Position numbers and translations under genes: made by a program
Assembly (NCBI GenBank): GCA_034432595.1
Contig: DAOUBT010000004.1
Location: 18,892-82,891 of the forward strand
Source: Anaerolineae bacterium
GTDB taxonomy: Bacteria > Chloroflexota > Anaerolineae > B4-G1 > SLSP01
Length of the DNA: 64,000 nt
Reading direction: 5' to 3'
Part shown: positions 3,001-40,286 of the stretch, in pieces
Layout: every line of letters begins with the position of its first letter
Position numbering within the stretch: the stretch's first letter is position 1
Notes under the pieces: generated by a model
Database searches by the model: none
The model's input: the letters and a program-made list of their open reading frames with translations, nothing else
Told to the model about the DNA's origin: nothing

Positions 3001-6000
3001 CTGGCTCGATCCCAGCGATTACCGCACCAGTCTGGGCCCGGGCACGGGGTACACCGAGACGATTCAAATCACCCTGGGAAGCCTGCAGCTCGGCTGGAGC
3101 CGCATCGTCAGGGTGGATAACGCGGCCTACGTGAACATCGCTCCCAACGGGCGCAGCGCCGGCTTCCAGGTCGGGCCGGGCAAGACAGCGATCATCTACG
3201 TCGTGACTACGCCGCCGCCGGGCACGTTCGCCAGAATGGAAGACCGCCTTACCCTCGGTGTGAATGCCACGCTGTGCGACCGCGACCCGATGGAGCTGAG
3301 CAGTCCGCAGGCCATCGTGCGCGTGCGCGAAGACGACAGCTTCCTCATTGGGCCGGATAATTTCGGCGCGGCGCTGCCGGGGCAAACCATCACCTACACC
3401 CACCGCATCACCAACACCGGCAACTTCACGCAGAGCTTCCGGCTCTTCCCCAAGGCGGGCTTCTACGGCGTCGGACGCATCATCTCGCCCACCGAAGACC
3501 TGTTGCCGCTCAACCTGGGGCCGGGCCAGAGCTACCCCATCACGTTTGCGGTGACGATTAACCCTGAAGCCGCGGGCGGTCTGGTGGACGTGACGAGCAT
3601 CATCGGCCTGAACCAGAATGCGATGCAACGCGCCGCCGCCAACAACACCACCATCAGCTACACCACCGGCGTGCGCTATGTCAGCCCGTCCGGGACCGAC
3701 TCGCTGGTGAATGAAACCATCGGCAGTCAGGACCCGAACGCGGTAGACCTGCCGGACAACAACTGCACGCAGCCGCAGGTCGCCCCGTGCTACAGCCTCG
3801 CCCACGCGCTGCAACAGGCCGCCGCGGGTGATGAAATCCGCTTAGCTACAGGCGTCTACACGCAGGTGATGACGGCCACCTATCAGGCTCAGGTCATCAC
3901 GCAAACCCTGTATGTCGCCAAATCCGTGACGCTGCGCGGCGGCTACGACGCGAGCAACTGGAACAGCACCGACCTGATCACGCCCACCACCCTGCTCAAC
4001 CCGCAAGGGCAGGGCCGCGCGCTGGTGATCCCGGAGGGCGTTACCGTCCACGTGGACCGCATCGCCTTCACAGGTGGACAGGCGGATGCGGGCGGTGCGC
4101 TTTACAACGCGGGCACACTCAAGCTTACCAACAGCCTCTTCTATGGCAACAGCGCCGCCACCGGCGCAGCGCTCTACACGCGCGGCACGCTTAACGCCTG
4201 GAATAACACTTTCTACAACAACTCTGCTGGCACAGGCTTTGGTGGTGGGATGTACATCCTCGCTGGCGAGGCGAACGTGCGCAACAGCATCTTCGCCGCT
4301 AACACGGCCGGGACGGGCAGCGCCGTGCATCGAGCTGGCGGAACGTTCAACTCCGACTACAACCTGTACTGGCAGAACGTCGTTTCCGGTGCGAGCACCG
4401 GCGCTAACGACAAAGTCAATGTAGACCCGCAGTTTGTGGCCACAGCGACCACGCCGCCCAACCTGCGCCTGCGCTCCACCTCGCCGGCGCGCGATGCGGG
4501 CGATCCGGCCACAGACTTCAGCACCTTCCCGCGCGATCTGGGCAACGCCTCGCGGCGCATGGGGCCGCGCGTGGACATCGGCGCTTACGAATACGTCATC
4601 AACATTGGCGCGCGCCTCACGCCGAACTACACGCGCGTCCTGCCCAAGGGCACGGTCATCACCTACACCCACACCCTCACCAACACCGGCGAGATGACCG
4701 ACACCTTCACCCTGAGCTTCAACTCCAGCCTCGGTTGGGGCCAGTTGCTCACGCCCGGGCCCTTCACACTGCCCAGCGGCGCGACAGCTCAGGTGCAGGT
4801 GCGCGTGACGGTGCCGACGGGGAACGTGGGCGGCTTGCAGGACGTGAGCGTCATCACCGCCACCTCACAGGCCGACCCGACGAAGTTCGCCTCCGCGACG
4901 GATAAGACCACGGCGGAATTCATCCCCGGCGTGACCTTCACCCCGAACCACAACACGCCGAACGCCGCGCCGGGCAGCGTCATCGTGTACGAGCACACGC
5001 TCACCAACACCGGCGACGGGCGTGACACCTTCACCCTGAGCTACGAGAGCACGCAGGGTTGGGCTTCCGCGCCGGTACCCGCCAGCGTCACGCTCAACGC
5101 GGGCATGAGCACGACGGTGCGCATCACGGTCACGGTGCCCGCCGGCGCGCTGCAAGGTATGCAGGATACCACGCGCATCACCGCCACATCCGCCTTCAGC
5201 CCGGCGGTACAGGCCGGTGTGGTGGATGTGACCAGCGTAGGCGGCGCGGCGGGTCTGGAGCTGACGCCGACTTCGTACCAGCGCGTGGTGGCATCCGGAA
5301 CGCCGGTTACCTACACCTTCACCGTGACCAACACCGGCAACGCAGCGGATACCATCTCCTTCTCGGCCATCAGTTCGCTGGGCTGGTCCTACGCCATCAA
5401 TCCGCCGAGCCTGTCGCTGAATGCGGGCGCATCCGGACAGGTACAGCTCGTGCTGACTGTGCCGGCCAACAGCGGCGGACAAACCGATGTGACGACCTTC
5501 ACAGCCAGCTCGACCAACACCCCCGGCCTCACCCGTCAGGCGACGGTGACATCCATGGTGCAACCGCAGGCCGGGGCTGAGCTGACCCCGCCCACTCAGA
5601 GCAAGACGGCGCAGGCGGGGAGCACGGTGACGTACACCTACACCGTGCGCAACACAGGCAACGCCAACGCCGCCATCACGCTCGATAAAGCGAACTCGCA
5701 GGGCTGGAACGTCACGCTGAATCCGACGGTGATTGCGAGCCTCGCGCCCGGAGCGAGTCAGACCGTGGTGCTGACAGTGAACGTCCCCGCCACAGCGGAA
5801 CAGGGCGCGACCACCGTCATCACGGCCACAGCGAGCGTGCCCAACGCGCCGAGCGCACGCGCCACCGCCACCGCGCTCACCACCATCCCCCTGCCCGGCG
5901 GCCCCTTGCTGGAGCCTGACCACCCCAACGGACAGGCGACGCCCGGCAGCGTGGTGACGTATGAGCACACGCTCACGAACACCGGCAGCGTGACGGATAC

Positions 6001-8704
6001 CTACACCCTGAGCTACCGCAGCAGTCAGGGCTGGGTGGTGACCTTCGATCCGGCAGGGCCGATTACCCTGGGCGCGGGGGCGAGCCGTACCGTGCTCGCC
6101 ACGCTGAACGTGCCCTCGAACGCGACGCCCGGCACGGTGGACACGACCGTCATCACCGCCACGGCGCAGAGCGACGCGCAACGCTTTGACACGGCGACGA
6201 ATGTGACCACGATTCTCAGCAGCGTTGCGCCGGTGCTCGATCCGGATTACGCGCGCAGCCTCAAGCGCGGAGAGAGCACCGTCTACACGCACACGCTCAC
6301 CAACCCCGGTACCGCTGCCCAAACTTACGCCATCACGATCAGCAGCACGCGCGCCTGGGCGACGTTGCTCACGCCCGCACAGGTGAGCGTGCCGGCGGGC
6401 GGCAGCACACCGGTTGCGGTGCGCGTCACCGTCCCAAGCACGGGCGTCACGCCGGGGATGCAGGACGTGACGACCGTCAGGGCTACGGTGCAGGGCGCGC
6501 CGACGCTTTACGCGCAGGCGGTGGATACGACCACCGTCGCACCGAGCGCCGGGGTGCGCTTCACACCCAACCGCAGTGCCAACGGGGATCCGGAGCAGGT
6601 CATCACGTACACCCACACCATCACCAACACGGGTGATGTGGCGGATACCTTCAGCTTCAGCTACGTCAACAGTACCGCCTGCGCCACCTGGACGGTGAAC
6701 GTACCCGCGCCGGTCACCTTAGCGCCGAACGCGGCACAGGAGGTACAGGTCACGGTGACGATTCCGCCTCTGGCGCCCGCCAACCTGGTGTGCGAAACCA
6801 CGGTCACTGCGGCCTCGCAGCTCGACCCGACCGTGCGCGCCAGCGTGAAGGACACGACCACGGTGAACACGTACCGTGACTTTGTGCTTTACCCGCTGAG
6901 TAAGGAGCGCAGCGCACGGCCCGGTCACATCATGACGCAGACGCTGGTGCTCACCAACACCGGCAATATCCCGGATACATACCTGCTCAACGTGGCGGAT
7001 ACTCCCAACGGCTGGGCCACCTTGACACCAGCCACATCCGTTAGCCTGCAGCCAGGTCAGGTAGCAACCCTCACGCTCACAGTGCAGGTGCCGGCGAGCG
7101 CCCAGAACGGCGCCACACATACCAGCTCGGTGATGGTGACCTCTCAGAGCGATACTACCATGACAGCGACGGCCATCATCACCACCTACATCGTCGAACC
7201 GCCGGGCGTGGCGCTTACTCCTGACCGCACGAACCGACGCGCAGCCGGAGAGACGGTGAATTATATCCACACCATCACGAACACCGGCGCGGCCCGCGAC
7301 GTGTTCAACATCAGCGCGGTCAGTGCCCACGGTTGGCCGGTACAGGCGCCGCAGAGTGTCGTGCTCGCTGCAGGGGAAAGGAAGTCGCTTATCATCGCGC
7401 TCACCATCCCCATGGATGTGATCAGCGACACGGTGGACGTGATCACGCTTACGGCCAGTTCGGATGCGGATGCCAGCGTCTCAGCAACGGTATACGACAC
7501 GACGACGGTGGCGATGCGCGCGGCGATGAGCTTCACGCCAGCTTTCCAACAGGGCGAAACCTGGCCTTCGCAGCCCATCCTCTACACCTTCGTGCTCACC
7601 AACACCGGCAACTATACCGATACCTTTGACCTGAGCAACAGTGTCGCACCCACGGGATGGACGGTCACGGTGGTGCCAAACGTTGCCACGCTGGGCATGA
7701 ATCAGGCGGTGCCGGTTAAGGTGACGGTCACACCGCCGGCAGGCTCAGGCGGCCTACACCATACGGTTACCGTCACTGCGACCTCACGCGCGAGTCTGCC
7801 GGGTGGTCCTGCGTTGATCAAGACTGCCCCTGTGGCCGTTCAGGCGGAGACGTGGGTGAAATTCACGCCGGGCGTGCAACTCAGTCCGGGCGTCCACTCC
7901 ATCGCCACACAGGGAGAGGTGGTCACCTACACCCATACGATCACCAACACCGGCACAGGTGTGGATACCTTCGACCTGAGCGTGGTCTCGTCCCATAACT
8001 GGCCTATCCTGTACCGTCCGCCAGAGCAAATCACCCTGGCCGCGGGTGAGGCGCACGCCTTCAGCGTGGTGCTGAAAGTGCCACAGACAGCTTACAGTGG
8101 GACGTTGGACATCCTTACCATTACCGCACGCTCGACGAGTTTCACCTCCACGGTGGCCACGGCGGAAGACCGTACCCTTGTCCAGGGCACGCCGAGCTTC
8201 CGGCTGTACCTGCCTGTCATCTACCGCGGTTATCCGCCTGACGGCGTGAACTTGATTGTGACGGGCATCCAGATTGGCCCGTTGGACACTCAAGGGACGG
8301 CGGTCATCACCGTGACCACGATGAACATCGGCAATCAACCGGTGGCCTACGGCAACAATTTCTACGTGGACCTGTACATTTTCTATGAGGACCCCTACAT
8401 GCCACCGCCACTGACGGCGGGGAACCGGTACTGGGGCGTGCAGGGCCACTGGTATCAGCCGGGAGCATCGGTCGTCCTGACCACAACCTACTCCTTCCCT
8501 GTGGGCGCCAACTGGACTTTCTACGCTCAGGTGGACACCGATAAACACGTGGTTGAATGGAACGAAAACGATAATGTTTACGGTCCATTGACGCGCTATC
8601 TGGCGCCGCCCGGCGCGGGTATCAACAACCTGAACATGATTCCGCAGATGCCGCGTCCGGTGCCGTTGACCCAGCCGCGTCCGGTGCCGCCGCTCCAGCC
8701 ATAG
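2..8704 (+). CDS. Giant surface/adhesin-like protein, 5'-partial (longer than 2889 aa): right-handed beta-helix Pmp-like repeats (FYxN...GGA[ILV]Y), about 22 DUF11-type repeats (TYTHTLTNTG...DTFTLS), a C-terminal CARDB-like domain and a Pro-rich tail
   Basis: The reading frame is open from position 2, with no stop upstream of the first Met at 35. Dozens of GGALYN/GGAIYV repeats fill the N-terminal 1400 aa. There are then about 22 tandem units of roughly 100 aa with the conserved pattern TYTHTLTNTG-x-DTF-LS...GW...VTVTVP...DVT-ITATS. The C-terminus reads PVPLTQPRPVPPLQP. Confidence 0.85.
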   Translation, partial: NTIFATNTAGTLGDALYSAMAYQPDYNAFFPQAGAVNPEVVPGPHTLYTDPKFINPTAGDLHLANDSPLFDRGDPQTALDHDFDGDLRPADQGYDIGADERRGCWAKNMRTGIIYANPQLAVYASQTNDEIRISVGECRGVHPLTVGGQVLSQTLHITRNLTLSGGWTRDFTQQYAGPFGYPDASERSTTLLPQGLGRALLITNTTMITIERVQMVGGNAAGLGGAALPNAGGNLLYASANGLFTHVDFYQGEAAYGGALYKVSGRLNLADSWNGNNTALTYGGALYNASGPLTVTVVGTGNQAIAGTWYNGNMAGARGGAIYVAGGSVILEDGSAEYKRNTAPSGGAIYVAPGGTLTVTAGSFYTNTAAQLGGALYNAGQAILHGGAFYDNWAGQDGGAFYNAGTASLDLGNRFYWNHAERNGGAIYAGGTFLALRNNVIYINTAQRGAGIYLAAGAPNIWHNTFHQNTASVEGGAIYVGTGAGSALQIKNNIFSENNAPQGKAIFSNRGQLDYNDYWPTDASNQVVGGVGVGSNNPNADPLYVKPGVTQQFHGDFHLQDKSTLIDAGVELGVIRDMDGDPRPSNARPDIGADEVMNCLVKNPRLNKLYGRLVMAVNEAQDGDTLRIAEGVCYENLTLNKALTLDGSWDKVFSSKLEYIATFIDGQNVGRVARVTSPNVVLRDLGLRKGSTQDNGGAVLLESGSSLSLNNVTIRESQAAGNGGGLYVSGGATLDLVDTGFSDNIAQGNGGGLYLADNSTADLYALAAYRNTATLGGGVYIAPNAQVQGFDSAVFGQNVATSNGGGLYNAMPNLELINTRFYENSAQAGAGIYNTGASARVLHGTLHYNVATQQGGALYNLGAGTVVSASIVASNTASTGAGIYGATNVTVDYVVRFANDFYQANGAHIKNADPRFLPNSGHLLYTSPAIDYVPSAASEVNWDYQGIPRPQICAKDAGYREYYVAKRLLTWVDTPNPPLNFADPGVPVTTTFSLRNDSEYWLDPSDYRTSLGPGTGYTETIQITLGSLQLGWSRIVRVDNAAYVNIAPNGRSAGFQVGPGKTAIIYVVTTPPPGTFARMEDRLTLGVNATLCDRDPMELSSPQAIVRVREDDSFLIGPDNFGAALPGQTITYTHRITNTGNFTQSFRLFPKAGFYGVGRIISPTEDLLPLNLGPGQSYPITFAVTINPEAAGGLVDVTSIIGLNQNAMQRAAANNTTISYTTGVRYVSPSGTDSLVNETIGSQDPNAVDLPDNNCTQPQVAPCYSLAHALQQAAAGDEIRLATGVYTQVMTATYQAQVITQTLYVAKSVTLRGGYDASNWNSTDLITPTTLLNPQGQGRALVIPEGVTVHVDRIAFTGGQADAGGALYNAGTLKLTNSLFYGNSAATGAALYTRGTLNAWNNTFYNNSAGTGFGGGMYILAGEANVRNSIFAANTAGTGSAVHRAGGTFNSDYNLYWQNVVSGASTGANDKVNVDPQFVATATTPPNLRLRSTSPARDAGDPATDFSTFPRDLGNASRRMGPRVDIGAYEYVINIGARLTPNYTRVLPKGTVITYTHTLTNTGEMTDTFTLSFNSSLGWGQLLTPGPFTLPSGATAQVQVRVTVPTGNVGGLQDVSVITATSQADPTKFASATDKTTAEFIPGVTFTPNHNTPNAAPGSVIVYEHTLTNTGDGRDTFTLSYESTQGWASAPVPASVTLNAGMSTTVRITVTVPAGALQGMQDTTRITATSAFSPAVQAGVVDVTSVGGAAGLELTPTSYQRVVASGTPVTYTFTVTNTGNAADTISFSAISSLGWSYAINPPSLSLNAGASGQVQLVLTVPANSGGQTDVTTFTASSTNTPGLTRQATVTSMVQPQAGAELTPPTQSKTAQAGSTVTYTYTVRNTGNANAAITLDKANSQGWNVTLNPTVIASLAPGASQTVVLTVNVPATAEQGATTVITATASVPNAPSARATATALTTIPLPGGPLLEPDHPNGQATPGSVVTYEHTLTNTGSVTDTYTLSYRSSQGWVVTFDPAGPITLGAGASRTVLATLNVPSNATPGTVDTTVITATAQSDAQRFDTATNVTTILSSVAPVLDPDYARSLKRGESTVYTHTLTNPGTAAQTYAITISSTRAWATLLTPAQVSVPAGGSTPVAVRVTVPSTGVTPGMQDVTTVRATVQGAPTLYAQAVDTTTVAPSAGVRFTPNRSANGDPEQVITYTHTITNTGDVADTFSFSYVNSTACATWTVNVPAPVTLAPNAAQEVQVTVTIPPLAPANLVCETTVTAASQLDPTVRASVKDTTTVNTYRDFVLYPLSKERSARPGHIMTQTLVLTNTGNIPDTYLLNVADTPNGWATLTPATSVSLQPGQVATLTLTVQVPASAQNGATHTSSVMVTSQSDTTMTATAIITTYIVEPPGVALTPDRTNRRAAGETVNYIHTITNTGAARDVFNISAVSAHGWPVQAPQSVVLAAGERKSLIIALTIPMDVISDTVDVITLTASSDADASVSATVYDTTTVAMRAAMSFTPAFQQGETWPSQPILYTFVLTNTGNYTDTFDLSNSVAPTGWTVTVVPNVATLGMNQAVPVKVTVTPPAGSGGLHHTVTVTATSRASLPGGPALIKTAPVAVQAETWVKFTPGVQLSPGVHSIATQGEVVTYTHTITNTGTGVDTFDLSVVSSHNWPILYRPPEQITLAAGEAHAFSVVLKVPQTAYSGTLDILTITARSTSFTSTVATAEDRTLVQGTPSFRLYLPVIYRGYPPDGVNLIVTGIQIGPLDTQGTAVITVTTMNIGNQPVAYGNNFYVDLYIFYEDPYMPPPLTAGNRYWGVQGHWYQPGASVVLTTTYSFPVGANWTFYAQVDTDKHVVEWNENDNVYGPLTRYLAPPGAGINNLNMIPQMPRPVPLTQPRPVPPLQP

Positions 8705-12540: not shown

Positions 12541-12759
12541 GTAGAACCGTGGGAGTTTCTAAGTATGGTCCGGCTTTTAGCATCGCTCCCCCACCCTGTC
12601 TCAAAAAGCCCTGGTATTTTCCAGTGTCTTCTGCAGTGTGCGGGTTTATTCGACTAAACTCTGACCAACAAGAAACCGTTTTAGCCCAACACGGTGACAC
12701 CCCGATACCCATACCCGAAGCGCCCTGCCTGCGCTCCGTTTGTCTGTAAGGAGGTGGTC

Positions 12760-15096
12760 ATGCGCAAAGTCAGGCTTATCCTGTTCGCCCTGATACTCCT
12801 GCTTTGGATGGAAGGGTTCTCCATCCCGGCACGCGCACAGGCTGATGATGACGCGGCGCTGCTGGAGCGCTATGCCCCGGTCTTCTATTTCCATCCAGAT
12901 GAGTACTTCCGCCCCCAACCCGTGGAGGTGATGCTGCCCGAAGCGCGCCTGCGCCGCAGCTCCCCCTTCTGGTTCGATGTGAACGTCCTGGCTTCGCTCA
13001 ACCTGCGCGATTTCTTAAACCTGCCACCGGAAAAGAGCTTCTTCCTCGACGTGTGGTATGGGAGCGAGGGGAGCGCCGCCACCGATTACACGGCCCACCG
13101 CAGTTATTACCGCGCGCTCCTCAGCCCGGAGGCGGGCGGACCTGAGCCTGCGGTGTACGGACGGGTCCACCGCGACGCGCAGGGCCACATCACCGTGCAG
13201 TATTGGGCGTTCTATTTCTACAACGACTGGTTCAACAAACACGAAGGCGACTGGGAAATGCTACAGGTCATGCTGGACCCCGACGGCACGCCGCGCTGGG
13301 TGGTGTACAGTCAGCATCACGGTGGAACGCGCCGCGCCTGGGAGGATACGCCGCGCTACGCACAGACTCATCCCATGGTGTACGTGGCGAAGGGATCGCA
13401 CGCTAATTATTTCGCCGGCGATGAGAGTTATCCCAACGGCATGACGATTGGCAAGACGCGCGTGGAGCTGCTCGACCGCACCGGTAGCGTGGAGCAACTG
13501 CGTCCGCGCGTCATCCGCCTGCCGGAGCGCGCGGAAGTGGTCGCCAATCCGGCAGCCTGGCCGGGCGCCGAATGGCTGCCTTACCGCGGGCGTTGGGGGG
13601 AAAACGCGCCTCAGGGCGATTTCAGCGGTCCCTATGGGCCAGCGGATAAGGGCACGCAATGGGACGATCCCTACGCCTGGGGCATGGCTCAACCGCTGGA
13701 TGTGGAGGTGTGGTACGCGCACCGCCTGCGCGTGTTCGCCTCTGTGCCAATCAGCGCCACGCTCAATACCGCGCCCGGCGCTTCCCTCGCCGGCGTCGAG
13801 ACGCTCAGCCACGGTCTCATCCTGCACAGCGACCCGCCGGAAGAGGGCGTTGTCATCACCTTACAGGCCGCGCCTGATACCGAGATGGATGTTAGCGCGA
13901 CCTGGCCCGAACGCAGCGCGGCGCGCGTCACGCACTGGAGGTTCGCCAACGTGCGCTTTGATGCCACCGGCACGGCCCTGCTCTTCCTGGGGCCCACATC
14001 CCCCAAAATTGTAGTAGGGCAGATGAGCTACCTGCCCACCACGAGCAGCAGTAACAGCGCCACGTGGGATACTCCCGACCTGGTGTGGATGGGAAGCCTG
14101 CTTACCGCGCAAGAGGTGGCGGTGGGCTTCGGTTGGATTCTCGTCGGCAGCATCCTGCCCGCCCTGGTGCTGCTGGGACTGGTGTATAACCTGGATTATT
14201 ACGAACGCGAACCGAAGCGGCTGGTGTTCTTTACGTTCGTGTGGGGCGCTGTGCCCGCGGTGCTGGTGCTCGTAGGGGCGGCTATCTTCTTCCGCCTGCC
14301 CACCTCGCCCCTGACACGCGAAGCGCATATCGCGTTACGCGCCGGGTTGCTCAGCGCAGCAGCGCAGGAGCTGATCAAGGGCGCAGCGGTGTTTTTCATT
14401 TTCTGGCGCTACCGGCGCGAGTTCGACGGGGTGTTCGACGGCATCGTTTACGGTGCGACGGTGGGGTTCGGCTTCGCCATGATGAGTCAGTTGCTCCGTC
14501 AGCTCAGCGATTTTGTGCTGTGGGGCTTTTCCAGCATGACGTTGGAGACGTGGGCGCAGGGGGTGCTCTTTGCCCTGCATCAGGCCATGTACAGCGCGTT
14601 TTTCGGCGCGTCGCTGGGTTGGGCACGGCTTTCTAATGACCGCAAGGCGCGGGTTTACGTGCCGGTTTTGGGGATGGTGGCCGCCATCGGCGCGCACGGG
14701 TTGCATTTGCGCTGGCTGAACAGCCTGCAAGGGCTGACGCCGGCTTTCGTCGTGCTTTCGCTGGCAGGGCTGTTGTTCACGGTGGGGGTAGGGATATGGG
14801 CTTTGTATCGTCAGCGCGTCTGGCTGGAGGCCATGCTCCCCCAATGGGAGAGCCTGGGGGTGAGCGCAAGTTTGTTGAAGCCGGGACGACGCTGGTGGTA
14901 TGAGACGCGCGCGCTCTTCCGCCATGGGCCGCGCGCCTGGCGCGCGCTGCGGCGCTTCCATAGCTTGCTGATGGAGTGGGCTTTCAAGGCGGAACAGGCA
15001 CGACTCCGCCCCGATGAGGCCGCGCTGGCGCAGGAGGCAGAACAGCTACAGGCGCGCCTGCTCGCTTTGTGGCCGCGCGTCAAGGGATACTTGTAG
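12760..15096 (+). CDS. Fusion protein: N-terminal secreted domain of unknown function (about 400 aa, HEGDWE motif) plus a C-terminal PrsW-like multi-pass membrane protease domain
   Basis: GGAGG 7 nt upstream of the ATG at 12760. Signal/TM sequence MRKVRLILFALILLLWM. C-terminal half has at least 7 transmembrane helices with PrsW-type motifs: QELIKG (EExxK-like), FALHQAMYSAF (FxxxH) and HGLHLRWLN (HxxxN). Confidence 0.65.
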   Translation: MRKVRLILFALILLLWMEGFSIPARAQADDDAALLERYAPVFYFHPDEYFRPQPVEVMLPEARLRRSSPFWFDVNVLASLNLRDFLNLPPEKSFFLDVWYGSEGSAATDYTAHRSYYRALLSPEAGGPEPAVYGRVHRDAQGHITVQYWAFYFYNDWFNKHEGDWEMLQVMLDPDGTPRWVVYSQHHGGTRRAWEDTPRYAQTHPMVYVAKGSHANYFAGDESYPNGMTIGKTRVELLDRTGSVEQLRPRVIRLPERAEVVANPAAWPGAEWLPYRGRWGENAPQGDFSGPYGPADKGTQWDDPYAWGMAQPLDVEVWYAHRLRVFASVPISATLNTAPGASLAGVETLSHGLILHSDPPEEGVVITLQAAPDTEMDVSATWPERSAARVTHWRFANVRFDATGTALLFLGPTSPKIVVGQMSYLPTTSSSNSATWDTPDLVWMGSLLTAQEVAVGFGWILVGSILPALVLLGLVYNLDYYEREPKRLVFFTFVWGAVPAVLVLVGAAIFFRLPTSPLTREAHIALRAGLLSAAAQELIKGAAVFFIFWRYRREFDGVFDGIVYGATVGFGFAMMSQLLRQLSDFVLWGFSSMTLETWAQGVLFALHQAMYSAFFGASLGWARLSNDRKARVYVPVLGMVAAIGAHGLHLRWLNSLQGLTPAFVVLSLAGLLFTVGVGIWALYRQRVWLEAMLPQWESLGVSASLLKPGRRWWYETRALFRHGPRAWRALRRFHSLLMEWAFKAEQARLRPDEAALAQEAEQLQARLLALWPRVKGYL

Positions 15097-15198
15097 ATGG
15101 GGAACTGAACTGCGGCGAGAGTCGTCATAGTACAAATTCAGGGCCTTTTGTAACGTCAGGCACAAGATCAGAGCAAAGGGCTGGAAGCGGGAGGAGAT

Positions 15199-15756
15199 AT
15201 GCGTCAGGTGTGGAAATGGCTGCTTTTGAGTGTGCTCTTGGGAGCGGGAATGGGTTTGCTGGTCAAAACGCCGGTCAAGGCCTGTTCCTGTATGCCGCCG
15301 GGCGATCCGAAAATAGAGTTGGAACAGGCCACGGCAGTTTTCAGCGGGCGCGTGTACAGCATGGAGGCTTCGGGCGGGGCGCTGTGGGTGCATTTTGAGG
15401 TCTCCGAAGTGTGGAAGGGGCCTTATCAATCCCTGATCACCGTGCGCACGGCAACCGATAGCGCCGCCTGCGGCTACACATTCGCAGAAGGCGTGGAGTA
15501 TCTTGTGTATGCCAACGGGGATACCAATGATTTACAGGTGAACTTGTGCAGCCGCACCCGTCCGCGCATGGACGCCGCCGAGGATATAGGAATCCTTGGA
15601 CCGGGGACACCTGTCAGTCAAATGGAAGGAAGCCCGGCGAAGAACACTTTTGATCCCAACCGGGTGTTGGCGCCGGTGGTGGGGATCCTCAGCGGGGCGA
15701 TTGTGGTGGGCATTTTGCTCGGCGGGTTATTGGATTTCCGGCCCGTGGTACGGTAA
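15199..15756 (+). CDS. TIMP/NTR-like (tissue-inhibitor-of-metalloproteinase-like OB-fold) secreted protein with a C-terminal membrane anchor
   Basis: GGAGG ribosome-binding site. Signal peptide ending VKA|CSCMPP, giving a Cys-x-Cys N-terminus as in TIMPs. TIMP N-domain landmarks: VFSGRV, VWKGP, AACGY, EYLVYANGD, LQVNLCS. C-terminal hydrophobic helix. Confidence 0.7.
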   Translation: MRQVWKWLLLSVLLGAGMGLLVKTPVKACSCMPPGDPKIELEQATAVFSGRVYSMEASGGALWVHFEVSEVWKGPYQSLITVRTATDSAACGYTFAEGVEYLVYANGDTNDLQVNLCSRTRPRMDAAEDIGILGPGTPVSQMEGSPAKNTFDPNRVLAPVVGILSGAIVVGILLGGLLDFRPVVR

Positions 15757-15849: not shown

Positions 15850-16083
15850 TCAGGCAGGCTTATGGTTGGCTTCGCTGGCTGCCACAGCAGCCAACAGGGC
15901 TTTGGCTAACCTGCGCGCCTGCTCCGGTGTGATAAAGATGTTACTCTCATCGCCGATGAAGAGTTTTTCGTCTTTAGGGCAGTCTTCAAGGATAGAGATG
16001 CAGATGTTATCTTCGTAGCCCCTGTCTTCTTCGCTGTAGTAGATCGTTACCCGCAAAGAACCATCCAACAACGTAATGGTCAT
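15850..16083 (-). CDS. Small hypothetical protein (77 aa) in a local lower-GC patch
   Basis: ATG with GGAGG 6 nt upstream (minus strand). Codon usage is AT-richer than the neighbours. No domain recognised. Confidence 0.35.
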   Translation of the reverse strand: MTITLLDGSLRVTIYYSEEDRGYEDNICISILEDCPKDEKLFIGDESNIFITPEQARRLAKALLAAVAASEANHKPA

Positions 16084-16267: not shown

Positions 16268-16292
16268 TTTTCATCCATCTCAGGGGGTGCGT

Positions 16293-17822
16293 ATGACGTT
16301 TGAAGAACAGTTAGACCTGTACTTGCGGGCGCGGGTCACGCTCATCGTGCTCAACACCATCGAGGAAGAGCGGGCTTTGCAGGCTATCAAGGCGGTGTGC
16401 GAGAAGCAGAAGCGGCCCTGCCTCACCTGGGATGTGGCGGATGGGTTTCAGCTCCTCAGTGGAAATGCCGCACCCCCCGCTTCCGTGCGCGATCCACTGG
16501 GCGCGCTGGAGCAGATTGAGAATGCCGCCGATCCGCCCCTGTTCGTGCTCAAGGACTTCCACGAGTTGTGGAACAATCCGCAGGTGAAACGCAAGTTGCG
16601 CTCGGCAGCGCAAAGGCTGCGCTACAGCAAGAAATCGCTGCTGGTGCTCACGCCAAACGGCAAAGTCCCGCCCGAATTGAGAGATGATGCGGTCATCACC
16701 GAGCTTCCCCCACCCTCCGCCGCCGAGCTGGATGCTGTGCTGGAGCAGCTTCTCAAAACGCCCGGCGTGCGCAACGACCTCACCCCGCTGGGACGCGAAA
16801 AGCTGGTGCAGGCCGCGCTGGGATTGACGCTGGCACAGGCGCAACGGGTCTTTGCGCGCTGCGTGGTGCGCAACGGAACCCTGGATGAGCGCGACATTGA
16901 TGAGGTGACGGAGGAGAAAAAGCAAATTATCCGCGAAAGCGAGGCGCTGGAATTTTACAGTGCCTCCGAGACGCCGGATGATGTGGGCGGCCTGGACGTA
17001 CTCAAACAGTGGTTACGTCTGCGCGAACGCGCCTTTACGCAGGAGGCACGCGCCTACGGGCTGCCCGCGCCCAAAGGTATCGCTCTCCTTGGCATTCCGG
17101 GCACCGGCAAGAGCCTCACGGCTAAAATGATTGGGGGGATGTGGCATCTGCCTCTGCTGCGCCTCGATGTCGGGGCGTTGTTCGGCAGTCTGGTGGGGGA
17201 ATCGGAGGAACGCGCGCGCCGCGCTTTGCGCCTGGCGGAGACGGTGGCCCCCTGTGTGGTTTGGATTGACGAGATGGAGAAAGCGCTTTCGCACGGCGGC
17301 CTGGATAGCGGCACGAGCACGCGCGTCTTTGGCACCATTCTCACCTGGATGCAGGAAAAGACCGCGCCGTGTTTTGTGGTGGCAACGGCGAACGACATCA
17401 GCAGCCTGCCACCCGAATTGTTGCGCAAAGGGCGCTTTGATGAGATTTTCTTCCTGGATTTGCCCACGCAAGAGGAACGCGAAGCTATCTTTGCTGTGCA
17501 TTTGCGCAAACGTAAACGCCTGCCACAGGATTTCGACCTCCACCTGCTGGCCCAACAGTCCGCGGGCTACGTGGGCGCCGAAATCGAACAGGCGATTATT
17601 GACGCGATGTACGTAGGGTTCGATGCCGGACGCGATATTACCACGCAAGACATTCTGGAAGCGCTCAAGCGACAGGTGCCGCTCTCCGTCTCACAGCGCG
17701 AACGCATCGAAGCCCTGCGCGCGTGGCTGATGGAGGGACGCGCGCGCTCGGCCTCCTTCCGCGAATCGCGCGAGGCGCAGCAGCGTTTTGTGCCCATTCA
17801 GCTTGAGGCTTCTGAGGTTTGA
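16293..17822 (+). CDS. Ycf46-like AAA+ ATPase (N-terminal domain plus C-terminal AAA module)
   Basis: Walker A GIPGTGKSLTAKMIGG. Walker B VVWIDEMEKAL. Sensor/Arg-finger region VVATANDISSLPPELLRKGRFDEIFFLDLP. Overall pattern matches cyanobacterial Ycf46-family ATPases. Confidence 0.85.
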   Translation: MTFEEQLDLYLRARVTLIVLNTIEEERALQAIKAVCEKQKRPCLTWDVADGFQLLSGNAAPPASVRDPLGALEQIENAADPPLFVLKDFHELWNNPQVKRKLRSAAQRLRYSKKSLLVLTPNGKVPPELRDDAVITELPPPSAAELDAVLEQLLKTPGVRNDLTPLGREKLVQAALGLTLAQAQRVFARCVVRNGTLDERDIDEVTEEKKQIIRESEALEFYSASETPDDVGGLDVLKQWLRLRERAFTQEARAYGLPAPKGIALLGIPGTGKSLTAKMIGGMWHLPLLRLDVGALFGSLVGESEERARRALRLAETVAPCVVWIDEMEKALSHGGLDSGTSTRVFGTILTWMQEKTAPCFVVATANDISSLPPELLRKGRFDEIFFLDLPTQEEREAIFAVHLRKRKRLPQDFDLHLLAQQSAGYVGAEIEQAIIDAMYVGFDAGRDITTQDILEALKRQVPLSVSQRERIEALRAWLMEGRARSASFRESREAQQRFVPIQLEASEV

Positions 17823-18041
17823 GCATGGGGGAACAAGCTCTGCTCTCCCTGCCTCGCCCCTCGCGGTCAGAGCGCCAAGAGAGGCACGGGCGTTCAAGCC
17901 ATGTTCCGATTGCATCCACCTGAGGCGCGCCGACGAGGTGCGGATGACGATGAGAGTGGCGTTGCACATGGGCGGGCGTTCCGATGGGCTATTCTTTAAC
18001 CCTGCGCGCTTTGCGGCTCAACCGGTGTAAGTGGAGCTACC

Positions 18042-20138
18042 ATGTCCTTGCTTGAAAGCATCCTTTTTGACACCCCCTCACGTTCGCTGCCATGGCGTCT
18101 GTTGCAGCGGCTCCTTGTGCGCTGGGTGGCGCTGAATCCAAAGCCGGTTGAGCTTGAGTTGCTGACGCGCGCCCTTCATCACCCTGATGCGGAGGTGCAA
18201 CGCATCGCCGAACGCGGCCTGCGTCAGCTCAAGCGAGATTACCTCAAAACGCTGGTCTGCCTGATTTGGGCGCGCACGCGCGATCCACGCCTGGAGACGC
18301 TGCTGAGCGAGTTGGGCTGGATAGCCGAAAGGCCACCGGAGGTGCGCGTCCTGACGTTGTTGCTGCAGGGAACGCCGGAGGAGGTGGGAGCGCGCATCGG
18401 CAGCACGATGGTCGAGCCTTTGCTGAAGGCCTGTGAGGATGCGGACCCGCGCCTGGCGGAACGGGCGCGCGCTGCGCTCCTGGCCCTGCGCCGTAAGGAT
18501 GCCCGCGCCGCTCTGTGGACCATCGTCCGCGAGAACGGCCATCCCCTGGCCCTGAAAGCGCTGGCGCAGAGCGGAGAACCGCCCCGAGACGAAAACGAGC
18601 GCGCGTTGTTCTGGTTCTTGCTGGGCCAATGGCAGGAGTATGAGGCGCTGGATTTCGACCGCCGGCGCTTGCGCGCAGTGTACGCCACCGCTTCGGCTGA
18701 GCTGCGCGCGCGCATCCGCGAGCAGTTGCGCGCCGCCGGACGCCCGGACTTCTTAACGGTGCTCACCGGCGGGGAGACGCGCCTGCAGGCCGAGGCGCTC
18801 TCGCCCGCCGAGACGCGCACCGTGCTGGAACTGCTGGTGGGGATGGGCGCATGGCGTGAGGTGTGGGACCTGGCGCTTAAGGTGCAGGTAGCCTGGGGAG
18901 CCTGGGCGGTGGAACGATTGGTCGCCGCCGGCTGGGAGCCTGAGGACGCCGAAGAGCAGGCCCTGTTGCGCACCTTGCACGGCCTGACGCAGGCCGGATT
19001 GCTGGCCGTGCCGGATGAAATCCGGCGGCGGCAGGGTTTGCTCGATTCGCACACGCTCGTCCGCGTGCCGGGACGGGTGAACGATGTGGTCTTCGCGCCA
19101 CGTTCACCCTGGATCGCTGTGGCGACCGGCACACGCCACGCGGTCATCTGGGATTACACGCAGGGCAAGCGCAAGATGTTGCTGGGGAATCATTTCGACC
19201 ACGCGATAGGGAGCGTGGCCTTCACGCCCGATGAGCGGGTGCTGCTGGGGGAACGCACCAATCAAAAAGAGCCGGTGGATTTGTTCCTGTACACCATGCC
19301 CCCGGATAACACCATGCGCCGCCTGGGATCCCATGAGATGATGATAGCGCTGGCCGTCCCCAATGACCGCTGGGCACTTTCGGCGGGACGCGAGGGTCTC
19401 CTGCGCCTGTGGGATTTGGAAGATGGTCGTCTGCTGCAACAGCATGAGACGCAAGGCGACTGGACTCGTCAATTGTGCGTGGTGGACGAAGCGCATGTGC
19501 TCTATCTGGGCCGGCTGATGCGCCTGATAAGCCTGCCGGATTTGAAAGAGCAGAAATGGCGCTTCACCGAGGGGCGCATCACCGCGGCAACGGTGTGCGG
19601 TAAGGATGTGCTGCTGGGACGATTCAGCGGCGAGGTGATCGCCCTCGATCTGAGCGATATGGGCCGTGCGCCGAAGCGCGTCATCAGCAGCTATGAGAAG
19701 GCGGTGGTGGGCCTGGCAACGCTCGCGCGCTATGGATTGGTGTTGAGCGTGGATGGCTCCGGCTTGTTGCGCGTCCTCGATACAGAGACGTATGAGGTGC
19801 GCCACGAACAGCGTATTGGGAAAGGCCGCGCCACCTCGTTACACCTTTCGCCGGATGAGGCTTTCATGGTCCTGGGATTGAGCGAAACGGCCTTCGCGCT
19901 GTTGGATTTGCGCTTCCTGGCCCTGCCGTGGCTCTTTGCCCAACCGTTAGCCCGGCTCGGTCCCGACGAGACGGCGCGCATCCGCTGGCTGGCCGGGCAG
20001 ACCCATCTGCTCCCCGATGTGCAGCGAGCCTTGCAATTTGCGGCGCATATCCTACACTATCGCTGGCGTTACGAAATCGAGCTGGAGCAGGCGCCGGAGC
20101 TGGTCGCAGGAGAGTTCGATATCGAGATTGAGGGGTAA
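18042..20138 (+). CDS. HEAT-repeat plus WD40/beta-propeller repeat protein
   Basis: N-terminal HEAT-like repeats (HHPDAEVQRIAERGL; ACEDADPRLAERARAAL). C-terminal WD-like blades (AVIWDY; LLRLWDLEDGRLL; LLRVLDTETYEV). Ribosome-binding site GGAG. Confidence 0.7.
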   Translation: MSLLESILFDTPSRSLPWRLLQRLLVRWVALNPKPVELELLTRALHHPDAEVQRIAERGLRQLKRDYLKTLVCLIWARTRDPRLETLLSELGWIAERPPEVRVLTLLLQGTPEEVGARIGSTMVEPLLKACEDADPRLAERARAALLALRRKDARAALWTIVRENGHPLALKALAQSGEPPRDENERALFWFLLGQWQEYEALDFDRRRLRAVYATASAELRARIREQLRAAGRPDFLTVLTGGETRLQAEALSPAETRTVLELLVGMGAWREVWDLALKVQVAWGAWAVERLVAAGWEPEDAEEQALLRTLHGLTQAGLLAVPDEIRRRQGLLDSHTLVRVPGRVNDVVFAPRSPWIAVATGTRHAVIWDYTQGKRKMLLGNHFDHAIGSVAFTPDERVLLGERTNQKEPVDLFLYTMPPDNTMRRLGSHEMMIALAVPNDRWALSAGREGLLRLWDLEDGRLLQQHETQGDWTRQLCVVDEAHVLYLGRLMRLISLPDLKEQKWRFTEGRITAATVCGKDVLLGRFSGEVIALDLSDMGRAPKRVISSYEKAVVGLATLARYGLVLSVDGSGLLRVLDTETYEVRHEQRIGKGRATSLHLSPDEAFMVLGLSETAFALLDLRFLALPWLFAQPLARLGPDETARIRWLAGQTHLLPDVQRALQFAAHILHYRWRYEIELEQAPELVAGEFDIEIEG

Positions 20139-20164
20139 CTCCAGAGGAAACCGGGAGGGTTATC

Positions 20165-20662
20165 ATGCCATTCTGGTCACGCCGGAAAAAAGAGGGGGCG
20201 CCCGCGGAGGCGCGTATGTTGCAGCTCGAAGCGGAGTTACAGGCCTTGCGCCTGACGTTGGAAGAGCGTGAGGCGGAACTGCGCAGGTTACGCGCTCAGT
20301 GGGAACAGGAACGCGCGCGCAGCACGGCACAAGTGGAAGCGCAGGTGCAGGCGCAGATGGCGGCGCTGATGGAAGCCGCGGCCCCGCCTGTGGCGCAGGT
20401 GCTATTGCAGGGGTCGCTCATCGAAGCGGGGCAAGAGGTGCGGGCGCGGGACGTGTGGCTGGTGGTGCAGCGTCTGGTGCGCGTCCTGGAGGCGCACGGC
20501 CTGGAGGTGAGCACGCCCATCGGCACAGAGGTGGCCTTCGATCCGGACCGGCATCAGCCCCTGAGCGGGAGTTGCCCTGCAGGGACGCGCGCGCGCGTGC
20601 GGCTGCCGGGCCTGAGTTACCGCGGACGGCTCATCCACAAGGCGGGCGTCGTTCAGGAGTGA
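20165..20662 (+). CDS. grpE: GrpE-like nucleotide exchange factor (short, 165 aa)
   Basis: GGAGGG ribosome-binding site. N-terminal coiled coil (LQLEAELQALRLTLEEREAELRRLRAQ). C-terminal beta-domain motifs FDPDRHQPLS and YRGRLIHKAGVVQE. Confidence 0.7.
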   Translation: MPFWSRRKKEGAPAEARMLQLEAELQALRLTLEEREAELRRLRAQWEQERARSTAQVEAQVQAQMAALMEAAAPPVAQVLLQGSLIEAGQEVRARDVWLVVQRLVRVLEAHGLEVSTPIGTEVAFDPDRHQPLSGSCPAGTRARVRLPGLSYRGRLIHKAGVVQE

Positions 20663-20716
20663 AGGGGCGTGGCAACACCCTTTAAGGTCAAAACGCTCAG
20701 GCAGGGATAAAAGGCC

Positions 20717-22303
20717 ATGGCAGGACGTTTGGGGATTGATTTTGGCACGTCGAATACGGTGGTCGCGCAGTGGGATGCCCTGGCGAAGGAGGGAAAGCCG
20801 CTGCTCATCCCGGAATACAGCCATTTCTACATGCAGGGCGGAGAATCCATCGCCGTCGTGCCCTCGCTCATCCACTATACAACGGACGGGCGGCGCTGGA
20901 TTGGCGAGCAGGTGCGACAGCAGCAATTGCTGCAAGCGCCGGGCACATTCCGCTGGATGAAGCGCTACATCACGCAGCGCAGCCCCTATCGCGTGCGCGT
21001 GGGCGAGCGCGACATCACCCCCTTCGAGGCAGCGCAGGATTTCCTGACAGCGGTGTTGCTCTTCGCTGGTCAGGAGGTGGCGTTGGAAGATGAGGAAGTG
21101 GCCTTCAGCGTGCCGGTGGAGGCCTTTGAGGACTACGAGGATTGGCTGACGGGCGTGGCACAGCAGGCCGGGATGCCGCGCTTCCGCCTGATTGACGAGC
21201 CATCAGCGGCGGCGCTGGGCTACGGCGCCCCCATCCGCCCCGGCGACGTGTACCTCATTTTCGATTTTGGCGGTGGGACGGTGCACGCGGCGATGGTGCT
21301 CATCGAAGAGGCGGAACATGCAGATAGCGGCCGCCGTTGCCGCGTGTTGGGCAAGGCCGGCGCGGATTTGGGCGGTGCGGTGGTGGATCAGTGGCTCTTC
21401 ATGGATATTCTGCGCCAACAGGGCCGCTCCGAAGGGGATGAGGTGGTGCGGCGCGTGAGCAATCTGCTGCTGGTGGAATGCGAGCGCGCCAAGATTCAGC
21501 TTTCCACACAGGAGCGGGCGTCCATCAGCGTGGTGGATCCGCAAAGTGGGGCGGCTTTAGGGGCGGATTACAGCCGCGCGCAATTCGAGAGCCTGCTGGA
21601 AGCGAACGGCGCCTTCACCACCATCGAGCGGACGGTGCGCCGCGCGCTGCACGAAGCCTACGAGCGCGGTTACGACGAGGATCGCATCAAGGCGGTGTTG
21701 ATGGTGGGCGGCAGCAGTCAAATTCCGGCCATCCAGAGCCTTTTGCAGCGCAGTTTCGGACGCGAGCGGGTCATGCTCAACCGCCCCTTAGATGCTATCG
21801 CCCGTGGCGCAGCCGCTTTCGTTGCCGGCACGGATTTCTACGACCACATTCAGCACAGCTACGCCATCCGCTACCTGAACCGCGAGAAAAACGAGCACGA
21901 TTATTGGACGATTGTCGAACGCGGCACACCCTATCCGGCAGCGCAGGTGGCGCGCCTGACGGTCAAGGCGTCGTATGATCAGCAGACGCATCTGGGTGTG
22001 GCGATTTTCGAAGTGAGCGAGACACGTCAAAGCGCCGCGGGCGCGTTCGAGCTGGTGTTCGATCCGAGCGGCGCGGCGCGGTTGGCCCCCGTCAGTGCCG
22101 AGGCCACGTATCGCCGCCAATATTTCTGGATGAACGAAAAGCAGCCCACCTTCCTGGTGGCCGATCCGCCCGCGCAACAAGGGGAAAAATGTTTTGAAAT
22201 CGTGTTCAGCATAGATGCCAACAAGCGTTTGCTGCTCACCGCGCGGGATTTGCGCACAGGTAAGCTGGCCTACAAGGATTATCCGGTGGTGAAACTGACA
22301 TAA
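20717..22303 (+). CDS. Hsp70-family protein with a complete actin-like ATPase domain but a truncated substrate-binding region (528 aa)
   Basis: IDFGTSNTVVA (phosphate-1), DEPSAAALGYG (connect-1), IFDFGGGTV (phosphate-2), VLMVGGSSQIPAIQ (adenosine motif). Only about 140 aa follow the nucleotide-binding domain. Confidence 0.85.
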   Translation: MAGRLGIDFGTSNTVVAQWDALAKEGKPLLIPEYSHFYMQGGESIAVVPSLIHYTTDGRRWIGEQVRQQQLLQAPGTFRWMKRYITQRSPYRVRVGERDITPFEAAQDFLTAVLLFAGQEVALEDEEVAFSVPVEAFEDYEDWLTGVAQQAGMPRFRLIDEPSAAALGYGAPIRPGDVYLIFDFGGGTVHAAMVLIEEAEHADSGRRCRVLGKAGADLGGAVVDQWLFMDILRQQGRSEGDEVVRRVSNLLLVECERAKIQLSTQERASISVVDPQSGAALGADYSRAQFESLLEANGAFTTIERTVRRALHEAYERGYDEDRIKAVLMVGGSSQIPAIQSLLQRSFGRERVMLNRPLDAIARGAAAFVAGTDFYDHIQHSYAIRYLNREKNEHDYWTIVERGTPYPAAQVARLTVKASYDQQTHLGVAIFEVSETRQSAAGAFELVFDPSGAARLAPVSAEATYRRQYFWMNEKQPTFLVADPPAQQGEKCFEIVFSIDANKRLLLTARDLRTGKLAYKDYPVVKLT

Positions 22304-22496
22304 CAAGAACCCACGGTCAGGGTTCGCCAGGGCCTGGACTTGCAAGGCCCATCGGGGAAGGCAAGGACTTGCGCGGCTGGATGCCAGCCTGCTACTCCAA
22401 GCAGGCAGCTTAAAGCTGTACCTGAGCGGCAACAGGCCCGGAGCCAGTCGGGGTTAAGACAGCGCCCCGGCCCCTTAATCAGCACAAGGAGGTAAC

Positions 22497-22880
22497 ATGT
22501 CCCATTTTACTCGCGTTAGAACGCGCCTGAAGGAAAAGGCCTACATCATAGCTGCGCTGCAACAGATGGGATACCAGGTCCACGATCAACGGGGAAGCGT
22601 GCGCGGCTTTGGAAACAAACAGGTCGAGGTCGAGTTTAGCGTTCGCCCCCGTCCGATGAGCTACGCCATCGGTTTCCGCAAGACGGGAGAAGGGTACGAC
22701 ATCATCGCGGACTGGTGGGGCGTGCGTGGGGTCAGGCAAGCCGAGTTCACGCGCAAACTGACGCAACTTTACGCCTATCAAGCCGCAAAGCAAAACCTCG
22801 AAGCGCAGGGCTTCACGTTAGCGGAAGAGCAGGTAGACGCGGAGGGGCGCATCCATCTTCTCCTGCGCCGCATGGTTTGA
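22497..22880 (+). CDS. DUF1257 (Ycf35-like) protein
   Basis: GGAGG ribosome-binding site. N-terminal MSHFTRVRTRL... and overall length and pattern typical of the Ycf35/DUF1257 family. Confidence 0.75.
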   Translation: MSHFTRVRTRLKEKAYIIAALQQMGYQVHDQRGSVRGFGNKQVEVEFSVRPRPMSYAIGFRKTGEGYDIIADWWGVRGVRQAEFTRKLTQLYAYQAAKQNLEAQGFTLAEEQVDAEGRIHLLLRRMV

Positions 22881-22891
22881 GGAGGGATGCC

Positions 22892-23095
22892 ATGAAGTAT
22901 CAAGAGATTGAGGTCATCATCACCCCCAAAGGGGAAGTGGAAATTCGTGTAGCCGGGGTCAAGGGCATGGGCTGTGTGGAGCTGACGCGCGCCCTCGAAG
23001 AAGCCCTCGGCGAAGTGCTCGCGCGCGAGTTGCAACCCGCGGCTTACGAGAGCGAGCAGGAGGAGCAGAATCAGGCATGGCTGAAGACGAGCTAA
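22892..23095 (+). CDS. DUF2997-family small protein (67 aa)
   Basis: GGAGGG ribosome-binding site. MKYQEIEVIITPKGEVEIRVAGVKGMGCVELTRALEEALG matches the DUF2997 signature (IE-x-xIxPDG-V...GxxGxxC...LExxLG). A 12-nt gap separates it from the preceding DUF1257 gene. Confidence 0.7.
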   Translation: MKYQEIEVIITPKGEVEIRVAGVKGMGCVELTRALEEALGEVLARELQPAAYESEQEEQNQAWLKTS

Positions 23096-23661
23096 CGCTC
23101 CATGCTTTCTGGCCGCGCAGCGCCGCCAACGGGCCGGGTCTGCGCGCCGTGATCTGGGTGCAGGGCTGCACACTGCATTGCCCCGGCTGCTACAATCCCC
23201 AGACGCACGATCCGCAGGGCGGGACGCGCATCACCGTGGCGGAGCTGTTGGCGCAGCTCCTGCGCCTGCCGGACATCGAGGGGGTGACCATCAGCGGCGG
23301 CGAGCCGTTGCAGCAGATGCACCCGCTCCGGCAGCTTTTGCAGGGCGTGCGCAGCGCCTCGTCGCTATCCGTCATCCTCTTTACCGGCTACACCTGGGAG
23401 GAAATTCAGACGCTGCCGGAGCACAGCGCGCTGCTGGCCTGTGTGGACGTGCTCATCAGTGGACGGTACGTGGCCGCGCAGCGCCTGGCGCGCGACTTGC
23501 GCGGCTCGGCCAACAAAGAGGTGCGCTTTCTCACGTCGCGCTACACCCCCGCGGATTTGAGCGCCGTCCCGGAAGCCGAGGTTATCATCACGCCCGATGG
23601 GGATGTGGTGTTAAGCGGCATTCATCCTTTGCGTTGGGCGGCCAGTCCGAGGGAAAGCTGA
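23077..23661 (+). CDS. Radical-SAM activase of the NrdG/PflA-like 4Fe-4S single-cluster family
   Basis: CTLHCPGC (Cx3Cx2C) followed by YN. SAM motif ISGGEPL. 194 aa. Overlaps the DUF2997 stop by 19 nt. Confidence 0.75.
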   Translation: MAEDELTLHAFWPRSAANGPGLRAVIWVQGCTLHCPGCYNPQTHDPQGGTRITVAELLAQLLRLPDIEGVTISGGEPLQQMHPLRQLLQGVRSASSLSVILFTGYTWEEIQTLPEHSALLACVDVLISGRYVAAQRLARDLRGSANKEVRFLTSRYTPADLSAVPEAEVIITPDGDVVLSGIHPLRWAASPRES

Positions 23662-30145: not shown

Positions 30146-30748
30146 AGGTTGGTTCCAGTGAACTTTCTACCGTAAAACTTTTGTAGCGCCAGCCTCCGGC
30201 TGGCGAGTTGCCCAGACGGAGCCTGGGGGTACCGGCGTACCGCCAGCCTCCGGCTGGCGAACGTCCCAGGCGAAGCCTGGGGATACAAGGGCAAATTCCC
30301 CGGGCGGAGCCTGGGGGTGACGGTGTACCGCCAGCCTCTGGCTGGCGAACGTCCCAGGTGGAGCCGGGGGGTACAAGGGCAAATTCCCCAGGCAAAGCCT
30401 GGGGGTGACGGTGTACCGCCAGCCTCTGGCTGGCGAATGTCCCCGGCAGAGCCTGGGGGTACAAGGGCAAATTCCCCAGGCAAAGCCTGGGGATACACAA
30501 GCAGAGCCTGGGGGTACAAGGGCAAATTCCCCAGGCAAAGCCTGGGGGTGACGGTGTACCGCCAGCCTCCGGTTGGCGAGTTGCCCAGGCGGAGCCTGGG
30601 GGTACAAGGGCAAATTCCCCAGGCAAAGCCTGGGGATACGCAGGCGAAGCCTGGGGGTACAAGGGCAAATTCCCCAGGCAAAGCCTGGGGATACGCAGAC
30701 GGAGCCTGGGGGTACGCAGGCAAAGCCTGGGGATACACAGGACAAGGT
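30146..30748. repeat. About 600 bp array of complex tandem repeats (units of roughly 47 and 90 bp) built from two perfect 8-bp-stem hairpins: CGCCAGCCTCCGGCTGGCG and CCCCAGGCAAAGCCTGGGG
   Basis: Fills the entire intergenic gap between two minus-strand genes. The ORFs in this interval (PQALPGEFALVPPG...) are repeat artefacts. Confidence 0.85.
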
Positions 30749-32593: not shown

Positions 32594-32707
32594 CGCTCAA
32601 CCTCCTGTTATGCGCTCGCTCCAAGCGCATCCCGTTTTTCAAAAAACAAGTAAAGATCGTTAAGGGCATAACCATCATCCAAAAGGCGTTCGCCGGATTT
32701 GCCACAG

Positions 32708-40262: not shown

Positions 40263-40286
40263 AAGTTATCCCTTACAGGCTACCGA

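Follow-up and report, generated by a model that had tools for sequence, protein, structure and literature searches.

A membrane-anchored homologue of the TIMP N-terminal domain in an Anaerolineae genome and its large prokaryotic family

TIMPs, or tissue inhibitors of metalloproteinases (MEROPS I35, Pfam PF00965), are treated in papers on their evolution as metazoan proteins whose evolution went hand in hand with that of the extracellular matrix (PMC4860685, PMC9409782, PMC10755359). The single-domain TIMPs and NTR proteins of invertebrates, such as hookworm AceES-2 and the cnidarian single-domain TIMPs, are eukaryotic and secreted, and several of them are devoid of the Cys-x-Cys (CxC) motif (PMC4860685). 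In Listeria monocytogenes, Tim (LMRG_00714) is a membrane-associated TIMP-like lipoprotein paired genetically with a secreted zinc protease, the metzincin Mtz, and the 2021 study of this lipoprotein found no bacterial TIMP-like proteins on record in the literature (PMC8235301). Other small zinc-peptidase inhibitors, secreted or membrane-anchored and encoded beside their protease, are APRin/Inh of Pseudomonas and Serratia, the N-terminal residue of which nears the catalytic zinc, and potempin A (PotA) of Tannerella, which is built on an OB-fold scaffold (PMC9890683). Here, we describe a gene located at positions 15199-15756 of a 64-kb stretch from an Anaerolineae bacterium (contig DAOUBT010000004.1; G+C content 60.8%), the whole of which is referred to as the window. 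Profile alignment and structure prediction confirm that it encodes a true prokaryotic homologue of the animal TIMP N-domain.

A single-sequence phmmer search of the window protein against PDB sequences ranks antibody Fab chains above TIMP-2 (E about 0.1). A profile built from an alignment of 50 sequences of the TIMP-like family finds N-TIMP-2 in the PDB with an E-value of 1.8e-6, the aligned segment extending from the start of the mature chain as far as TIMP-2 Cys101, and hhalign of the family against N-TIMP-2 returns a probability of 97% (E 9.3e-11). Individually, 26 of the 50 relatives match the Pfam TIMP model at E<=0.01, the best at 8e-10, and two sequences (P0116 and a Methanosarcinales member; 23.8 and 24.2 bits) score just over the PF00965 cut-off of 23.1. 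The correspondence with N-TIMP-2 can be followed column by column through the CSC-x-P N-terminus, the [FW]KGP motif, the TA-x-SSA-x-CG connector, the EYL strand, and the LC motif, and the positions invariant in the 50-sequence alignment are C29, C31, P37, V47, F48, G50, W72, G74, C91, G92, F95, Y101, Y104, C117, and R119. The predicted structure of the domain (about 95 residues) is an NTR/TIMP five-stranded OB barrel with flanking helices, superposable on N-TIMP, the PCOLCE NTR domain, and C345C. TIMPs are the best matches among solved structures in both sequence and structure, and no bacterial homologue figures among these matches. The first-pass annotation, made from the sequence alone, had recognized the N-terminal OB-fold of TIMPs from a series of spaced motifs; all of these are present at the spacing it gave, and its reading is borne out by the profile alignment to N-TIMP-2 and by the NTR/TIMP-fold matches of the predicted structure.

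The alignment places C29, C31, C91, and C117, all four invariant in the family, opposite TIMP-2 C1, C3, C72, and C101. In TIMP-2, the C1-C72 and C3-C101 disulfides fix the inhibitory N-terminal segment, and they are structural in every solved TIMP; C29-C91 and C31-C117 would be their counterparts in the window protein. The four cysteines might instead act as ligands or as a redox centre in an extracytoplasmic metal-binding or thiol-redox protein, given that they cluster in the fold and that many hosts are anaerobes or archaea, in which extracytoplasmic disulfides are less certain. However, the structural role of the same four positions in TIMPs, the absence from the alignment of any other conserved His, Met, or Cys that could serve as a ligand, and the lack of any metal-transport or redox gene recurring nearby in 106 loci make such a function very improbable.

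The reading frame is opened by the earliest start codon available downstream of an in-frame stop, and its product reads MRQVWKWLLLSVLLGAGMGLLVKTPVKA up to the predicted cleavage site and CSCMPPGDP... beyond it. The signal peptide combines a basic n-region and a hydrophobic core with Pro at position -5, Val at -3, and Ala at -1, and signal peptidase I (SPase I) probably cuts after Val-Lys-Ala28, which places the CxC motif at the mature N-terminus (VKA/CSC), as had been predicted. Among the 203 members in which CxC could be located, Ala occupies position -1 in 195 and one of A/V/S/G/T occupies position -3 in 193, position -2 usually has a bulky residue (Y, F, or L), position +2 is Ser (177 members) or Thr (10 members), and exactly four domain cysteines are found in 189. 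A cut just before Cys1 is therefore consistent with the conservation of positions -1 and -3 throughout the family. In terms of the hidden Markov model of the domain, CxC falls at positions 1-3 in 359 of 360 members, while the median position of Cys1 is residue 28, and in 367 of 372 members Cys1 is no more than 75 residues away from the N-terminus. This placement holds also for members carrying C-terminal LysM, CarboxypepD_reg repeats, dockerin and YHYH, or fasciclin domains. Extra internal copies of the domain occur in 6 of 372 members; in the proteins P0129, P0136, P0149, P0234, and P0140, TIMP-like domains stand in tandem, two or three per protein. The first keeps A/CSC behind the signal peptide, and the second copy of P0140 is devoid of the cysteines. 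The near-universal position of CxC right behind an SPase I site is the one that a TIMP-type mechanism calls for, and it is not seen in non-inhibitory NTR modules.

Two other modes of surface attachment were considered and rejected. A lipoprotein would require a lipobox, [LVI][ASTVI][GAS]C, which only 9 of the 203 members fit; the V-K-A-C of the window protein has Lys at -2. As for sortase anchoring, the window protein has no LPXTG-like motif and no NCBIfam sorting-signal match, and single family members match the LPXTG, LAVTG, or GVDTG models. The window protein bears a C-terminal hydrophobic helix, in agreement with the membrane tether proposed earlier, and a linker followed by a transmembrane segment, usually with R/K after it, is found in 152 of the 203 members. 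The linker differs in length and composition from member to member, and in the window protein the predicted structure has a confidence score (pLDDT) of 60-72 over residues 141-160. The SPase I-type N-terminus and the sequence homology to TIMPs distinguish this family from Listeria Tim, a lipobox lipoprotein without sequence similarity to TIMPs, assigned by Phyre2 prediction only, that becomes TIMP-like only after Mtz has removed about 50 N-terminal residues.

By analogy with animal TIMPs, we consider that the window protein has roughly an even chance (about 50%) of being a membrane-tethered, single-domain, two-disulfide N-TIMP homologue that inhibits an extracytoplasmic zinc metallopeptidase through a free Cys-Ser-Cys-x-Pro ridge. 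It would be a type I membrane protein whose single domain is displayed at the outside of the cytoplasmic membrane. After Sec export and cleavage by SPase I, Cys29, its alpha-amino group free, would be the first residue of the mature chain, the N-terminal segment of which would be pinned by the two putative disulfides to the C-D and E-F connectors. The OB barrel, predicted with high confidence, would then fold, and the linker of ~30 residues and the transmembrane helix, both apparent in sequence and model, would hold it at the cell surface. Tight-binding inhibition would follow as in TIMPs, the Cys29-Ser30-Cys31-x-Pro ridge entering the primed side of the catalytic cleft, the amine and carbonyl of Cys29 chelating the zinc, and Ser30 directing its side chain into S1'. 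The domain could alternatively be a non-inhibitory NTR-fold binding module, namely a surface-displayed ligand or a cell-wall or matrix binder resembling agrin NtA, the netrin C-domains, or PCOLCE, in which the cysteines are purely structural. We hold this to be rather unlikely, as TIMPs provide the best matches among solved structures, CxC stands exactly at the predicted mature N-terminus with Ser/Thr at its second position in nearly all members, and the SSA-x-CG connector, which resembles that of TIMP-2, is conserved, a combination absent from non-inhibitory NTR modules.

If an inhibitor is assumed, no target for it can be identified in the window: no zinc metallopeptidase gene lies within the 64 kb; two HExxH-containing open reading frames (ORFs) were discarded as candidates, one encoding a GAF/PAS histidine kinase and the other having no Pfam match. 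An all-against-all BLAST of 929 neighbouring ORFs from 106 loci did not reveal any partner conserved across phyla, the recurring neighbours consisting only of within-genus synteny and of generic response regulators, kinases, SDRs, and ABC ATPases. In five Blastocatellia (Acidobacteriota) genomes (L025, L074, L079, L107, and L119), the TIMP-like gene follows a secreted Peptidase_M60 gene on the same strand at a distance of 4-9 bp (positions 4205-5975 for the L025 pair). The enhancin-like M60 protein contains HExxH (Pfam E 3.9e-44), the TIMP-like proteins are soluble, with 146-162 residues and a Lys-rich tail, and the identities among the pairs amount to 59-72% for the TIMP-like member and 58-88% for M60. 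Such a tight same-strand order is typical of bacterial protease-inhibitor operons, and these pairs are candidates for one, recalling the Tim/Mtz pairing of Listeria. In Marinimicrobia, the TIMP-like gene of L086 lies 99 bp from that of an HExxH dockerin protein. APRin/Inh and potempin A, unrelated to this family in sequence and different in details of the fold, are always operon-linked to their target, whereas most members of the window family stand alone.

Several of these observations weigh against a TIMP-type inhibitor: the lack of a zinc metallopeptidase gene in the window and of a conserved partner across the 106 loci, and the restriction of the M60 link to a single related clade with some wider synteny. 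M60 is moreover a gluzincin, and the known TIMP targets are metzincins. To these can be added that the window protein alone reaches only 16 bits against PF00965 (E 0.011; residues 27-121 against model positions 1-111 of 183), below the cut-off; that the third N-domain disulfide (Cys13-Cys124/126) is absent, TIMP-2 Cys13 being aligned with a residue other than Cys; that the TIMP C-terminal domain (about 60 residues with three disulfides) is missing, only a helix, the linker, and the transmembrane segment following residue 121; and that the internal copies in P0129, P0136, P0149, and P0234 contain CxxC (CPRC, CPPC) and would have no free N-terminus unless processed.

Other differences from animal TIMPs concern the prokaryotic hosts, the identity of only about 20-26% to the N-domains of TIMP-2, TIMP-3, and TIMP-1, and the C-terminal part, which is a linker and membrane anchor or, in relatives, a LysM, dockerin, or transthyretin-like module. 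The last cysteine is followed by an invariant Arg (C-S-R-T), and the clade of the window protein has a short A-B hairpin. At residues 53-64 (positions 15355-15390), this protein and its close relatives are devoid of a ~10-residue, 'SSADP'-containing A-B loop that most members have. The A-B hairpin of TIMPs helps set target selectivity. Unlike several of the invertebrate single-domain proteins, the prokaryotic family keeps CxC almost without exception.

The view that bacterial TIMP-like proteins are rare, expressed in the first-pass annotation, proved wrong. A first search with the window protein gave 966 matches, and an exhaustive search of 1.84 billion cluster representatives (50% identity clusters) with a profile returned 22,813 at E<=1e-3, 12,911 at <=1e-10, and 2,186 at <=1e-30, from across bacteria and archaea. 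A degenerate DNA pattern (EY[x][IV]YA, 11 residues, CSRT), scanned in one-genome-per-species data, was found at at least 119 loci. Judging from the record titles among the matches listed, these comprise about 45 loci in Bacillota (Sutcliffiella, Lysinibacillus, Paenibacillus, Thermoactinomyces, and others), about 22 in Chloroflexota, about 15 in Acidobacteriota, 10 in Flavobacterium, 7 in CPR/Patescibacteria, 6 in Myxococcota and other "delta" lineages, 5 in Archaea (Methanosarcinales, Nitrosarchaeum, Woesearchaeota), and a few each in Gemmatimonadota, Cyanobacteria, Marinimicrobia, and others. The closest named homologues of the window protein belong to metagenome-assembled genomes (MAGs) of Anaerolineales, Ardenticatenales, and Herpetosiphonaceae, and an identical copy is present on other assemblies. 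In one archaeal MAG locus (L024; P0111/P0126/P0127), a YdjM-family membrane hydrolase gene lies directly 3' of the TIMP-like gene, and the pair is annotated as a single 372-residue fusion protein in another MAG.

No NCBIfam model covers this family, and no paper on it was found in the searchable literature. A Ureibacillus member (A0A0A3I590) carries the automatic UniRef name "Tissue inhibitor of metalloproteinase", so that the TIMP resemblance was already latent in the databases. Judged from sequences, what appears to be new is a prokaryotic TIMP-like family with a conserved inhibitory ridge and a homology visible from sequence, the TIMP/NTR kind itself being already known. It is possible, although we would advance it only tentatively, that the more than 20,000 clusters (50% identity) represent true TIMP-mechanism inhibitors, mostly membrane-tethered and chelating zinc through the free N-terminal Cys, and that the animal TIMP N-domain descends from this family or shares its origin instead of being an invention of the metazoan extracellular matrix. 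If its members inhibit zinc peptidases, they would constitute a major unrecognized class of prokaryotic cell-surface protease regulators, the account of TIMP origin would have to be revised, and thousands of small two-disulfide N-TIMP scaffolds would become available for metalloprotease-inhibitor engineering. The Blastocatellia M60/TIMP-like pairs offer a directly testable enzyme-inhibitor pair. With its breadth, its conserved ridge, and a literature silent on it, the family is a good lead for experiments, yet the locus described here is an ordinary member of a large, half-labelled family.

Table 1. Features of the TIMP-like gene and its surroundings (positions in the window)
Feature	Coordinates	Strand	Basis
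PrsW-family intramembrane protease, 800 residues, large N-terminal ectodomain; upstream neighbour	12694..15096	+	Pfam PF13367 (E 5.7e-23); NCBIfam intramemb_PrsW
Ribosome-binding region GGAGG, upstream of ATG	15182..15198	+	Read from sequence
TIMP/NTR-like membrane-anchored protein of 185 aa, complete gene with its stop codon	15199..15756	+	ORF list; family matches
Signal peptide (residues 1-28, V-K-A at its end); SPase I predicted to cut before Cys29	15199..15282	+	n/h/c-region layout; family -3/-1 statistics; lipobox absent
TIMP-like OB-fold domain, residues 29-121, with invariant C29, C31, C91, C117	15283..15561	+	
Short helix (127-133) and low-confidence linker, residues 122-152	15562..15654	+	Structure model; family alignment
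Transmembrane helix at the C-terminus (about 153-178), then a short tail with Arg (DFRPVVR)	15655..15753	+	Predicted helix; family pattern
77-aa ORF just 3' of the TIMP-like gene, opposite strand	15850-16083	-	No Pfam match
AAA ATPase, 698-aa WD40 protein, GrpE-like, Hsp70/MreB-like, DUF1257, DUF2997, small radical-SAM protein	16287-23650	+	

The genomic surroundings of the TIMP-like gene are listed in Table 1. The neighbouring protease, against which the first-pass annotation had suggested inhibition assays, is an unlikely target: NCBIfam files PrsW as glutamic-type, a class to which zinc chelation is inapplicable, and no PrsW-like neighbour was seen at the 106 other loci, the 8-kb stretches of which are not centred on the TIMP-like gene. 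The TIMP-like protein might rather be a substrate, regulator, or partner of PrsW, either because clipping near the membrane frees its TIMP-like domain or because it modulates PrsW signalling. Consistent with this, the two genes share a strand, that of PrsW being directly upstream at a distance of 102 bp in the window and of 87 and 26 bp in two relatives (59-68% identity), and the 102-bp gap of the window yielded neither a sigma-70-like promoter nor a terminator. Extracytoplasmic function (ECF) sigma factor genes adjoin two more distant homologues, and Listeria Tim sets a precedent for the release of a membrane-anchored TIMP-like protein (PMC8235301). However, the relatives with this adjacency share the entire syntenic block from an aminotransferase to the AAA ATPase, and the adjacency thus carries little information; PrsW is not adjacent to the genes of P0008, P0009, and P0053, and a cytoplasmic tail of only about 7 residues leaves no anti-sigma domain. 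A functional tie to PrsW is accordingly improbable, and we regard this gene as context only. Its product has an N-terminal extracytoplasmic region of ~450 residues, including a short Vps62-like stretch, and far exceeds the 210-position NCBIfam PrsW model.

Downstream, the small ORF on the opposite strand is also called as a gene (77-81 residues) in the corresponding position of the relatives L001, L124, and L125. The ensuing run of genes on the forward strand is at least partly kept in the relative L124 and looks like an uncharacterized chaperone-associated module. At the 5' end of the window, positions 2-8701 (forward strand) encode the last 2,900 residues of a giant secreted protein, which has 4,872 residues on the longer contig L001, with weak matches to a beta-helix (Pel9A-like) and to Ig-like/NPCBM-associated repeats. 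Lastly, positions 26663-40265 of the reverse strand encode three successive, very large sensor histidine kinases (1,168, 843, and 1,687 residues) with multiple GAF/PAS domains, two of which also possess receiver domains.
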